In this document: positions 37,801-40,800 of the stretch, in pieces
Layout of the letters: the number at the start of each line of letters is the position of its first letter
Numbering within the stretch: the first letter of the stretch is position 1
Assembly (NCBI RefSeq): GCF_055900595.2
Contig: NZ_CM148325.1
Length of the DNA stretch: 64,000 nt
Reading direction: 5' to 3' (one strand)
Program-made: the position numbers

Positions 37801-40800
37801 CGCTCACTACGCGCGAAGTGGCTGAAACTATCAGCAACGGCGAAGCCGGATGCTTTATGCACGGGCCAACCTTTATGGGCAATCCGCTGGCCTGCGCGGC
37901 AGCAAACGCCAGCCTGGCCATTATCGAATCTGGCGACTGGCAGCAGCAGGTAGCGACTATTGAAGCACAACTGCGCGAGCAACTGGCTCCTGCCCGTGAC
38001 GCCGAAATGGTTGCCGATGTGCGCGTGCTGGGAGCGATTGGCGTGGTCGAAACCACTCGTCCGGTGAATATGGCTGCGCTGCAAAAATTCTTTGTCGAAC
38101 AGGGTGTCTGGATCCGACCTTTTGGCAAGCTGATTTACCTGATGCCACCCTATATCATTCACCCGCAACAGTTGCAGCGCCTGACCGCAGCGGTTAATTG
38201 CGCGGTGCAGGATGAAACATTTTTTTGCCAATAACGAGCAGTCAGCGTGAGGTTTTCTGGCTACACTTTCTGCAAACAAGAAAGGAGGGTTCATGAAACT
38301 CATTAGTAATGATCTGCGCGATGGCGATAAGCTGCCGCATCGCCATGTCTTTAACGGCATGGGTTACGATGGCGATAATATTTCGCCGCATCTGGCATGG
38401 GATGATGTTCCTGCGGGAACCAAAAGTTTTGTCGTCACCTGCTACGACCCGGATGCGCCAACTGGCTCTGGCTGGTGGCACTGGGTAGTTGTTAACTTAC
38501 CCGCTGATACCCGCGTATTACCGCAAGGGTTTGGCTCTGGTCTGGTAGCAATGCCAGACGGCGTTTTGCAGACGCGAACTGACTTTGGTAAAACCGGGTA
38601 CGATGGCGCAGCGCCGCCGAAGGGCGAAACTCATCGCTACATTTTTACCGTTCACGCGCTGGATGTAGAACGTATTGATGTCGATGAAGGTGCCAGTGGC
38701 GCGATGGTCGGGTTTAACGTCCATTTCCACTCTCTGGCAAGCGCCTCGATTACTGCGATGTTTAGTTAATTGCTCAACCAGATGGCGCAATGCTATCTGG
38801 TATCACTTAAAGGTATTAAAAACAACTTTTTGTCTTTTTACCTTCCCGTTTCGCTCAAGTTAGTATAAAAAAGCTGAACGTGAAACATTAAAAGCCATTA
38901 ATATCAATGCATTACAATATTTTTAGTCTAAAAAATAGACTACATAATGCTACAAAACACAACATACCCAGTCACTATGAATCAACCACTTAGATGGTAT
39001 TAGTGACCTGTAACAGAGCATTAGCGCAAGGTGACTTTTTGTCTTCTTGCGCTAATTTTTTGTCAAACACATTACGTCGTTTGCTGAATTTACAACCATG
39101 CTCAGTATCTCGATAAGCGCAGAGAAATGATGCAGTGGTGGGCGGATTGGCTTGATGAAAAGGTGTAGCAACCAACATTGCTATATCTCAGATAGCACAA
39201 AGCCTTGCAATCCAGTGCAAAGCTTTGTGTGTCTCAGTTTTGTCTCATCGGTAATTATGTGTTCGCTACGATGCAAGAATCCATACCAATAAGCATCCGA
39301 TAATTGGGAAAGAAAAATCCAACAAACTTCCCACATCCCACACGCGTGGATCAAAACCTCCCCACCACGGCATGTTGACACGTTTCCCTTTCCCAAACTT
39401 TTCTATCCAGCGATATTCTGCCTGGGTGTGTTCACGCGCAATGAAGAACGTACAACCGGCTATCGCACCGTAAGCCCAGTTTCCGGTAAAAATACCAACC
39501 AGTACCTGAGCCGCAAAAGCGCAAAGCGAGTGAAGAAATGGAGTGACATCAATGCTCTTAATCATGAAACTTCCCCATTGGTTGAAAATATGGCTCCTCC
39601 AACTCCAAGTGTATTTCGTGTTGTGCTCAACCTAAGAGGGCTGGAGTCAGAATTAGAATATCCTGTAGCAGAAATAAAAGATCCTCCACTAATAGTCAAC
39701 TGCGGAACATCGGCTATATCTGAATAAGTTCTGTCAGCAACAGTATTATTTATAGCCACATGTGATCCAAAAAAACTTCTTATTGTTTGGTTTTTAACTT
39801 TACTTCCTTCAATGGTTATCCTACTACCACAGTCAGCAATAAATCCTGAATCTGCATCCAGCGTTGCATTCATAAAAGAAGCTTCAGATCTCTCTACATC
39901 AATCCATCTAATATCTTTTGTGGGATTTGCACCAAATACATGACAAATATTAGAGTTAAACCTTACACCATCTTGGAGGTGCATTAATTTTTTTATATCT
40001 GTACCCCATAGCCTTGGAAAATTAACAGATGCTCCTGCATGGCAATCAAATCCCAGCTCAACCCCTGAGATATCTACAGCCTTTCCGGAAATAACAGCAC
40101 CAGTGTCTGCATTAACGGCTGTTCCACAATTGCGCATATCATTACCAGCAACATCAACACAACCCGCACCATCAATACGCACACCAAGTGCACATCCATA
40201 AAAACCTTTTTCAATATTTGGTTCAAGGACTTTACCACTTGTTTCTGCATCACTTTCTTCAACGTCATGTCGTCTTGCATCAACATATGCTGTATGAATG
40301 CACGTTAATCCACGATATGAGCAATGTATAGTTTTATGGTCGCGTATATTAACATTTGAACCATCTCTTACATTCCATCCTATATAACAATAGCTTGCAC
40401 TTGACCCCTGAAAATCTGCTTTAACATTATAAATACAATTAACTGACGCAACCGTACTCTCTGTGCACCGTTCAAACTTACTTACAGGCATTGATGCCTT
40501 GACATTATTTACCAGTTGCAGGGAAGAGTATCTGCTATAAGAAAAATCACATACGTAATACCCTTCTGGCATATATGCAGCAACACTTTCCTCATCAGGA
40601 GCACATCCGGTATGATATGCACTAATTTTTGCACCAAAACTACCATGAATTCCAACGTAGAACTTTCGAGCACCTGAATACGGATAGAAATTAAGTTCAG
40701 CTTTTTGAGTTACAATAAATGCACAAACATCGCTATCATCTCTATTTTCTTCAATCTGAATAGCAAATACAGGACTTTTTGCTGCATCGCAAATGTAAAA

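Follow-up and report, generated by a model that had tools for sequence, protein, structure and literature searches.

The window (the whole 64,000-nt stretch of contig NZ_CM148325.1, NCBI RefSeq assembly GCF_055900595.2, that we analysed) carries a small membrane protein gene at 39266..39565 on the minus strand, which encodes 99 aa from an ATG start and belongs to PHROG 1443. Directly upstream on the same strand lies a P22-type tailspike gene of 685 aa (39562..41619), and the two genes share four nt, ATGA (39562..39565, minus strand), in which the tailspike TGA stop overlaps the ATG of the small gene. The minus-strand junction reads GGGGAAGTTTCATGATTAAG, with the tailspike ending in ...E V S TGA and a GGGGA stretch lying 6 nt upstream of the small-gene ATG, so the overlapping 99-aa ORF proposed in the preliminary description is indeed present. 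NCBI's PGAP annotates a 95-aa version of the same gene, with an ATT start at 39553; most homologues start at the position that aligns with the PGAP start, while here the upstream ATG alone is a standard start codon. The small gene closes the tailspike transcription unit as its last cistron, and a consensus scan found neither a separate promoter immediately ahead of it nor any promoter-like site between the tailspike body and the gene.

The 3' untranslated region of this unit contains a 14-bp hairpin beginning 36 nt past the small-gene stop (39196..39229, minus strand), and the 126-nt stretch examined has a minimum free energy of -37.8 kcal/mol (z = -4.0). Further on, a 7-bp hairpin is followed by CCUUUUC (39154..39183, minus strand), a candidate weak intrinsic terminator; because the consensus scan called no terminator there, we infer rather than observe that this hairpin forms a weak-terminator-like end of the tailspike/small-gene unit. 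Beyond it lie a lambda/434-type att core and P arm (38860..39020, minus strand), marking the prophage end beside the host gene ybhB. The lambda core sequence GCTTTTTTATACTAA occurs once (38860-38874, minus strand), with 0 occurrences expected by chance, and the interval 38860-39240 is about 91% identical to a phage 434 region annotated as 'O core of attP', which bears out the earlier statement that no other gene lies between the small gene and the lambda-type arm. At the other end of the unit, a homologue of mnt (41766-42134, plus strand) is divergent from the tailspike gene, and the 146-nt gap between them holds the palindrome AAGACCACAGTGGTCT (41688..41704, no strand), a candidate Mnt operator over a putative tailspike-proximal promoter, which may resemble the P22 operator Omnt.

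The small protein and its family

Hydropathy (Kyte-Doolittle, 19-residue windows) shows two hydrophobic regions in the 99-aa protein, at residues 7-43 (peak 1.67) and 78-99 (peak 2.03), and AlphaFold predicts with a pLDDT of 92.6 three helices (8-27, 30-57 and 78-98), resolving the first hydrophobic region as a helical hairpin. Both results agree that the gene encodes a membrane protein, as had been proposed; the two hydrophobic segments described earlier hold as hydropathy but not as a helix number, which is probably three. TMHMM, as run by the annotators of phage 21, gave two TM segments with both termini inside. Averaged over 212 family members, K+R residues number 0.63 in the N-tail, 0.11 in the turn between TM1 and TM2, 5.4 in the large loop and 0.58 in the C-tail, suggesting three membrane helices with the N-terminus in and the C-terminus out, an orientation drawn from charge counts alone. 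The C-tail averages 4.4 residues across the family, and the window protein stops one residue beyond helix 3.

The invariant residues of the family are H12, R44-E45-H46-x-Q48-A49-E50-Y51, M65-P66-W-W-G69-G70-F-D72 (MPWWGGFD), D83 and P87, and helix 1 carries a conserved, glycine-zipper-like Q20-x3-G24-x3-G28. By the charge counts, an invariant polar site made up of H12, R44-E45, Q48, E50, W76, D83 and the Trp-rich loop would lie at the cytoplasmic interface of the membrane.

Its relatives show the gene to be real: it belongs to a large, so far uncharacterised family of phage-encoded small inner-membrane proteins. The PHROG 1443 HMM ("unknown function") matches residues 5-98 to profile positions 1-94 of 97 (E = 9.1e-54), a full-length match with no differences to set the window protein apart. 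JEP4 gp21 is 100% identical to the window protein, GALLYPH_17 of Gally 89.5% and phage 21 gp24, a 'putative membrane protein', 77%; all three are of equal length and occupy the equal place behind a tailspike or side tail fibre gene. The family comprises 434 clusters (at 50% identity), every one a stand-alone protein of about 90-120 aa with no fusions to known domains, and its median dN/dS of about 0.13 indicates purifying selection. Complete E. coli genomes carry it in 1917 of 5426 cases (about 35%), in one to seven copies with a median of two. Lack of conservation together with lack of transcription or translation evidence, the outcome named beforehand as counting against the gene, is not what we find: the ORF is strongly conserved, and transcripts of the 89.5%-identical homologue are present in E. 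coli LF82 (see below).

At the same time, models and databases are silent on what the protein does. The family has no Pfam or NCBIfam model of its own: no Pfam family matched the window protein at E <= 1, the sole NCBIfam line, to MlaA, is noise at 11 bits where the cutoff is 375 (E = 0.15), all PHROG matches are of unknown function, and distant members showed no recurrent Pfam family. PADLOC gave no match for the window protein and four distant members, a profile search of PDB sequences returned 0 matches, and no structure similar to that of the window protein was found. The literature search yielded no relevant characterised homologue and nothing on the UniRef name 'Ybl63', and the small gene is absent from the text of the LF82 CRISPRi preprint.

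Linkage to receptor-binding protein genes

Members of this family are found immediately 3' of receptor-binding protein (RBP) genes of many unrelated kinds, and the stop codon of the RBP gene frequently overlaps the start codon of the small gene. Among close relatives, a same-strand ORF ends no more than 40 nt upstream in 74 of 85 loci, 14 of those 74 with the ATGA overlap; in diverse viral contigs, such an ORF lies within 100 nt upstream in 63 of 78 loci, with a -4 or -1 overlap in 26 of the 63. The upstream neighbours are tailspike or tail-fibre PHROGs and include at least seven unrelated C-terminal types; P22-like and epsilon15-like tailspikes and lambda-like side fibres occur among these neighbours, and further partners are the phage 21 side tail fibre, an Aeromonas P2/HP1-like fibre, a Comamonas gpJ-like protein and DGR target genes with their variable repeat at the 3' end. 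Downstream genes are heterogeneous, and some homologues sit within structural operons, in the gap between tailspike and scaffold/portal genes or between a DGR target gene and avd. One distant member is placed among early genes, remote from any RBP gene. That the linkage is so strict in very different phages suggests that phage genomes follow a general rule of organisation here, and with its near-constant position right behind a host-recognition gene the small gene is probably expressed together with that gene rather than being a classical O-antigen conversion gene.

We considered whether the gene belongs instead to the att/int module, and dropped the idea because homologues also found beside IntS-type integrases, sitABCD cargo, lysis cassettes and head genes still follow an RBP gene. 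Matching to a specific receptor was likewise rejected, as the sequence of the homologue tracks host genus and not RBP type: E. coli copies are 75-100% identical regardless of the RBP, the window protein is 61% identical to the Aeromonas copy although their RBPs differ, and another E. coli copy, whose RBP shares a domain with the Aeromonas RBP (46% identity over about 560 aa), is 60% identical to that same Aeromonas copy.

The small gene and the receptor-binding part upstream of it travel together as a cassette. In the window, residues 1-113 of the tailspike form the P22-type head-binding domain and are followed by a receptor-binding part of low GC (33-39%); the interval 39307-40926 is 98% identical in epsilon15-like prophages, where it is joined to a different tailspike N-terminus. 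In CFT073 and E. coli B, a pair consisting of a distal fibre gene and a homologue precedes a 3' remnant of tfa, so that the homologue takes the exact place of tfa. This position, strictly 3' of RBP genes in podo-, sipho- and myovirus-type genomes and with recurring stop/start overlaps, would suit a membrane-anchored helper for the folding, trimerisation or attachment of the tailspike or fibre, standing in the slot of Tfa-type proteins (lambda Tfa, P2 G, T4 gp38), which also lie 3' of RBP genes and travel with them. A helper would also fit the retention of an own copy by each prophage in polylysogens (LF82 has three homologues) and of an intact homologue in five related Aeromonas jumbo phages. 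We nevertheless consider it unlikely. Known fibre chaperones are soluble, Tfa-type proteins being of about 175-200 aa, whereas the window protein is a 99-aa integral membrane protein that does not match the Pfam Tfa model. Moreover, the upstream RBPs have no common C-terminus to be recognised, many of the upstream fibres end, as read from their sequence, in an apparent S74-type intramolecular chaperone segment, and P22-type tailspikes fold unaided. In the virulent phage 6947 the fibre gene is intact and the homologue behind it survives only as a decayed, frameshifted remnant, so the homologue is accessory and appears dispensable in at least this phage; the distant member located among early genes also speaks against a helper.

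A second possibility is that the gene behind the RBP gene codes for a membrane protein of the holin, antiholin or lysis-timing type, with precedents in T7, where gene 17.5 follows gene 17, and in T4, where t follows gene 38. Like class I holins (lambda S), it has about 100 aa, three predicted helices and probable late expression, and its glycine-zipper-like motif in helix 1 would be in keeping with such a role. Some homologues do adjoin lysis genes: in epsilon15-like prophages two holin genes, an endolysin gene and a spanin gene come after the homologue, in one locus it overlaps a holin/antiholin gene (PHROG 126), in two others the genes after it are those for an endolysin, for a 2-TM protein and for a spanin-like product, and in another it is flanked by a TM protein gene and an endolysin gene. 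But lysis adjacency is confined to a minority of homologue loci, the downstream neighbours being mostly non-lysis genes (in the window, the small gene is flanked by the tailspike gene and att), and wherever a homologue abuts a lysis cassette a second holin candidate is present. Lambda-like and P22-like carriers, for their part, normally keep their lysis cassette elsewhere in the genome. The protein also matches no Pfam or PHROGs holin model, has an invariant polar loop, lacks the charged hydrophilic C-terminal tail of holins despite its TM helices, and has a predicted N-in/C-out orientation that is the reverse of that of class I holins. Taken with these differences, a role in lysis seems to us improbable.

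Expression and possible function

The homologue in the LF82 prophage Gally (89.5% identical to the window protein) is at background by RNA-seq in LB culture but is up in macrophages (log2FC 4.9), where mnt and the tailspike gene rise with it (PMC9928086). The published list of genes that lysogens express during growth in LB includes none of the three LF82 homologues (PMC9928086).

These data bear directly on the preliminary suggestion that the gene is an O-antigen modification or exclusion gene, of which the membrane protein part stands while conversion, or exclusion linked to a receptor, is weakened by four results. In its classical form, lysogenic conversion would have the prophage express a protein that alters O-antigen or LPS, Wzy, WaaL or Wzx being possible targets of inhibition, and thereby blocks the adsorption of phages using the same receptor; a precedent is Pseudomonas phage D3 with its small polymerase inhibitor Iap. 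The small gene fills the slot between tailspike and att in which P22-like phages carry gtr or oac, its product is a membrane protein, its upstream partners are mostly glycan-targeting tailspikes, and some conditions allow its transcription in a lysogen. On the other side, the same protein (75-100% identical within E. coli) is found behind RBPs unrelated in specificity and in architecture, including DGR-diversified ones, which leaves no pairing with one O-antigen type; a recurrent overlap with the upstream late structural gene takes the place of an own promoter; all three LF82 homologues are missing from the LB-lysogen list; and no Gtr, acyltransferase or defence model was matched, searches of Pfam and NCBIfam giving no GtrA-like, glycosyltransferase or acyltransferase_3 domain and the protein showing no similarity to GtrA, GtrB, acyltransferases or any polymerase. 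As the conserved site is, in addition, predicted to be cytoplasmic, we regard classical conversion as the least probable of the explanations considered here.

The reading we favour, with a probability of roughly 40%, is that the gene encodes an accessory inner-membrane protein that is co-expressed with the RBP and has a conserved target in the host, the most likely outcome being the exclusion of other phages. Holins aside, the small inner-membrane proteins that phages encode typically serve in exclusion (P22 SieA, T4 Imm, HK97 gp15), and genes for exclusion or conversion often stand beside RBP genes (cor, T5 llp, lom, P2 Z/fun, gtr/oac). A generic exclusion that is not specific to a receptor is our leading guess. 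The protein would be made whenever the RBP is made, that is, late in lytic growth, and in lysogens when conditions switch on the mnt/tailspike region. Its cytoplasm-facing conserved site might then bind a conserved inner-membrane component of the host, or a lipid-linked molecule, rather than a surface receptor, and this binding could alter the envelope such that the infected or lysogenic cell is guarded against further phage attack, as a generic superinfection exclusion acting at or after DNA entry. Being the conserved flank on the right-hand side of the RBP cassette, the gene may secondarily serve as a homology anchor for swaps of receptor-binding domains.

Several observations count against exclusion. 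Most known prophage exclusion genes are expressed in LB-grown lysogens, and none of the LF82 homologues is on that list; the family gene, in contrast to genes of the known exclusion proteins, is coupled to a late structural gene and seems not to be constitutive in lysogens. Placement inside structural operons and overlap with late genes suit a lytic-cycle or RBP-related role at least equally well, the several intact copies per genome suggest that each phage needs its own copy, and intact copies are found in the Aeromonas jumbo phages. SieA, Imm and gp15, together with Cor and T5 Llp, are, like the window protein, small and accessory phage proteins of the envelope with genes beside those for host range, yet the window protein has no sequence or model similarity to them, nor to PADLOC models or any characterised exclusion protein, and Cor and Llp are receptor-specific while this family is not.

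Somewhat more doubtful than exclusion is a broader reading in which the family is a previously unrecognised and nearly universal companion of RBP genes, an inner-membrane protein co-translated with tailspikes, tail fibres and even DGR-diversified RBPs, whose function falls outside the characterised classes of phage proteins (for example late protection of the cell that produces it, independent of the receptor, or a step at the membrane in RBP deployment). Such a companion would also provide a conserved flank that enables the exchange of receptor-binding domains among podo-, sipho- and myoviruses.

The gene is present, often in several copies, in about a third of complete E. coli genomes and carries no assigned function. 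Should it turn out to act in exclusion, the phage resistance of lysogens would have a very common determinant that has so far gone unrecognised, with bearing on phage therapy and host-range prediction; were it tied to RBP function or exchange, host-range engineering would be affected, since cassette swaps may need to include it. Either way, the gene marks the right-hand boundary of a mobile receptor-binding cassette.

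Gene layout around the tailspike gene

The P22-like prophage in the window is inserted at the lambda attachment site, adjoining bioA-ybhB. The window has a single copy of the lambda att core GCTTTTTTATACTAA, at 38860-38874 (- strand), and the stretch 38860-39240 is ~91% identical to a phage 434 stretch annotated attP core. The tailspike gene (39562-41619, - strand; 685 aa) carries a Pfam Head_binding domain at residues 1-113 (E = 2e-65) and is directly followed by the small gene (39266-39565, - strand; 99 aa). At their junction, ...GAAGTTTCATGATTAAG..., the tailspike TGA and the small-ORF ATG overlap by 4 nt, which bears out the preliminary description of an ORF whose ATG overlaps the tailspike stop (ATGA). 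In an identical E. coli chromosome PGAP starts the gene at an ATT codon, giving 95 aa; this is also the position of the aligned start in most homologues, while the only standard start in the window allele is the upstream ATG.

We found no promoter-like site between the tailspike body and the small gene, which, because of the stop/start overlap, is probably co-transcribed and translationally coupled with the tailspike gene. Two hairpins lie downstream of the small gene, one of 14 bp (39196-39229) and a small one with a U-run (39154-39183). The 126-nt downstream stretch folds with z = -4.0, and together these features suggest that the transcription unit ends here. At the other end, an mnt homologue with Arc and Repressor_Mnt domains (41766-42134; flagged as truncated by PGAP in the identical chromosome) is divergent from the tailspike gene, with no arc or ant gene between the two. 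The 146-nt gap (41620-41765) contains the palindrome AAGACCACAGTGGTCT (41688-41704), a possible Mnt operator; it may resemble that of P22, which governs the promoter directed at gene 9.

An IntS-type integrase gene has left 81 nt of its 3' end (39088-39168, + strand) in the space separating the small gene from the lambda/434-type P arm; PGAP lists this remnant as a partial pseudogene. Prophages that have this tailspike/small-gene pair beside an intact intS align with the window from 39086 onward, suggesting, together with the remnant, that the att/int module was swapped by recombination. Two small envelope-type genes (42033-42464, - strand; 42570-42959, + strand) separate mnt from the last DNA-transfer gene, in the slot that sieA takes up in P22. 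One product is a predicted lipoprotein of 143 aa (PHROG 6823, with a weak match to the PEGA domain) and the other a 129-aa protein with a signal-like N-terminal sequence (PHROG 2651); both are candidate exclusion or moron gene products.

The small protein and its family

The small protein is a 100% match to gp21 of Escherichia phage JEP4 (Lederbergvirus) and matches PHROG 1443 ('unknown function') with E = 9e-54, while Pfam, NCBIfam and PADLOC scans gave no match. A word-indexed search returned 424 relatives and an exhaustive profile search 434 clusters at 50% identity, every member being a stand-alone protein of about 90-120 aa. The family gene is present in 1917 of 5426 complete E. coli genomes (median 2 copies, maximum 7), and the median dN/dS over 60 distinct E. 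coli-type alleles is 0.13; the small gene is real and under constraint. Cultured-phage carriers are mostly temperate E. coli phages and also include a Cobetia phage and five Aeromonas jumbo phages that are related to one another. Every source annotates the protein as 'hypothetical protein', and one UniRef entry is named 'Ybl63', a name without occurrence in the searchable literature.

Hydropathy confirmed the two hydrophobic segments noted in the preliminary description (residues 7-43 and 78-99). AlphaFold2, run on a 63-sequence alignment, gave helices at 8-27, 30-57 and 78-98 (mean pLDDT 92.6), with the first hydrophobic region modelled as a helical hairpin turning at the conserved G28-x-W30; among solved structures and predicted viral structures nothing resembled this model beyond generic helical bundles. 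Invariant in close relatives are D6, R44, E45, H46, Q48, A49, E50, Y51, W53, R62, M65, P66, G69, G70 and D83; at 30-45% mutual identity H12, R44, E45 and W76 are still invariant, and Q48, A49, E50, D83 and P87 almost so. All conserved residues lie inside the 44-77 loop or at helix ends facing it. Mean K+R counts across 212 members are 0.63 in the N-tail, 0.11 in the helix 1-2 turn, 5.4 in the large loop and 0.58 in the C-tail, which by the positive-inside rule favours three membrane helices, N-in/C-out, and would put the conserved site where the membrane meets the cytoplasm; for the phage 21 homologue, its annotators recorded a TMHMM prediction of two TM segments that leaves both termini inside.

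From this predicted cytoplasm-facing conserved polar site we infer a specific inner-membrane partner rather than action on a surface receptor. The protein shares positional or physical traits with holins, Gtr/Oac proteins, exclusion/defence proteins and Tfa, but fails the sequence or domain hallmarks of holins, Gtr/Oac conversion, known exclusion/defence and Tfa chaperones alike, and PHROG 1443 is its sole membership among the groupings that could be tested. The O-antigen conversion factor put forward in the preliminary description we consider very doubtful.

Linkage to receptor-binding protein genes and cassette exchange

At nearly all of its loci, the gene that precedes the family gene encodes a receptor-binding protein (RBP). 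Among close relatives a same-strand ORF ends ≤40 nt before the start in 74 of 85 loci (ATGA overlap in 14 of these), and the upstream proteins include P22-type tailspikes, at least five of them unrelated in the C-terminal part, as well as lambda-like distal fibres whose C-termini, as read from the sequences, resemble S74-type intramolecular chaperone segments. In phage 21 a side tail fibre lies upstream with a 92-aa ORF between, and in Comamonas a gpJ-like protein gene precedes the homologue. In an Aeromonas P2/HP1-like prophage the homologue has an ATGA overlap with the stop of the preceding gene, which encodes a fibre of 875 aa; the C-terminal 560 aa of this fibre share 46% identity with a P22-type tailspike of E. 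coli that is also trailed by a homologue. On diverse metagenomic viral contigs, 63 of 78 loci have a same-strand ORF whose end lies no more than 100 nt upstream, and 26 of the 63 show overlaps of -4 or -1; PHROG matches of these neighbours are tailspike, tail-fibre and pre-neck-appendage proteins, and downstream neighbours vary (scaffold, portal, adaptor, endolysin, Avd).

Five DGR-type contigs share one gene order, the family gene directly following a 365-383-aa gene. Avd was identified in two of the five (L105 and L118), where the upstream gene has the variable repeat at its 3' end and the template repeat comes after avd, placing the small membrane gene between the Mtd-like target gene and avd (L118: cassette 4785-8054, variable repeat 5810-5928, template repeat 6697-6815; L105: cassette 3391-6553, repeats 4385-4483 and 5237-5335, respectively). 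Exceptions are a distant member amid early genes of a YuA-like phage and the Aeromonas jumbo phages, where the family gene has a terminase-like gene on one side and a tail fibre gene on the other. The family protein, conserved and of inner-membrane type, is encoded together with RBPs of any kind and probably translated together with them. RBP-adjacent accessory membrane proteins are a familiar kind, the PHROG 1443 family itself being uncharacterised; its near-universal linkage to RBP genes, DGR targets included, was not found in the searchable literature.

In lambda-like and environmental phages, fibre genes are repeatedly separated from the membrane gene by genes for small, acidic, soluble proteins of 92-110 aa (PHROG 1361 or PHROG 7802; loci L002, 5710-5988; L175, 3627-3908; L124, 5663-5992); these proteins may be an additional part of the RBP cassette.

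The family gene moves with the receptor-binding domain as a cassette and is dispensable in at least one phage. Window positions 39307-40926 take in the receptor-binding part of the tailspike gene plus 86% of the small gene, counted from its start. They are 98% nt-identical in epsilon15-like prophages, where they are fused to another tail-protein N-terminus and have a lysis cassette behind them; one recombination junction falls inside the small gene, at about 39307. A lysis-associated role, suggested by such neighbours and by holin-like traits, is unlikely for a protein failing the holin hallmarks. Along the tailspike gene the GC content drops from 43% (head-binding part) to 33-39% (receptor-binding part), and in the small gene it is 47%, a contrast that fits a mobile, foreign receptor-binding domain between conserved flanks, one of them the small gene. 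In CFT073 and E. coli B a 'distal fibre + homologue' pair precedes a 3' tfa remnant and the pin invertase gene; there the cassette has taken the place of a fibre-tip/tfa pair. Occupying the tfa slot, the protein could act as a membrane-anchored RBP helper, which seems improbable to us. E. coli copies are 75-100% identical irrespective of RBP type, and the Aeromonas copy is ~60% identical to E. coli copies both with and without its RBP type; the small protein is not matched to a receptor.

Virulent phage 6947 (47.7 kb; no lysogeny genes seen in the stretch viewed) retains behind its intact fibre gene only a frameshifted, unannotated remnant without the REH...QAEY motif (locus L088, about 4960-5180; ON637251.1, about 34145-34370), which argues that the small protein is dispensable for this phage and its fibre. 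Phages ZCEC08, HC8A and PBM-2 have the same remnant.

Possible function and expression in lysogens

The reading we favour, tentatively and at a probability of roughly 40%, is that of an accessory protein that would alter the inner membrane of the producing or lysogenic cell and make it resist further phage attack, by generic exclusion at or after DNA entry (compare SieA, Imm and HK97 gp15). Secondarily, the gene might serve in evolution as a right-hand homology anchor for RBP-domain exchange. A role of some other kind is a minor but real possibility.

Published RNA-seq of E. coli LF82 (PMC9928086) covers three prophages with homologues. The authors concluded that Gally, whose homologue (LF82_765/GALLYPH_17) is 89.5% identical, is without morons, and the Perceval and Tritos homologues are likewise not on their moron list (PMC9928086); in LF82, the family gene does not seem to be constitutively expressed in lysogens. 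In LB overnight culture the Gally homologue stays at prophage background level; inside macrophages it rises (log2FC 4.9, q = 1.3e-22), with mnt and the tailspike gene induced alongside while other late genes drop. In every condition other than LB the normalised level of the Gally homologue is higher than the tailspike gene's (PMC9928086).
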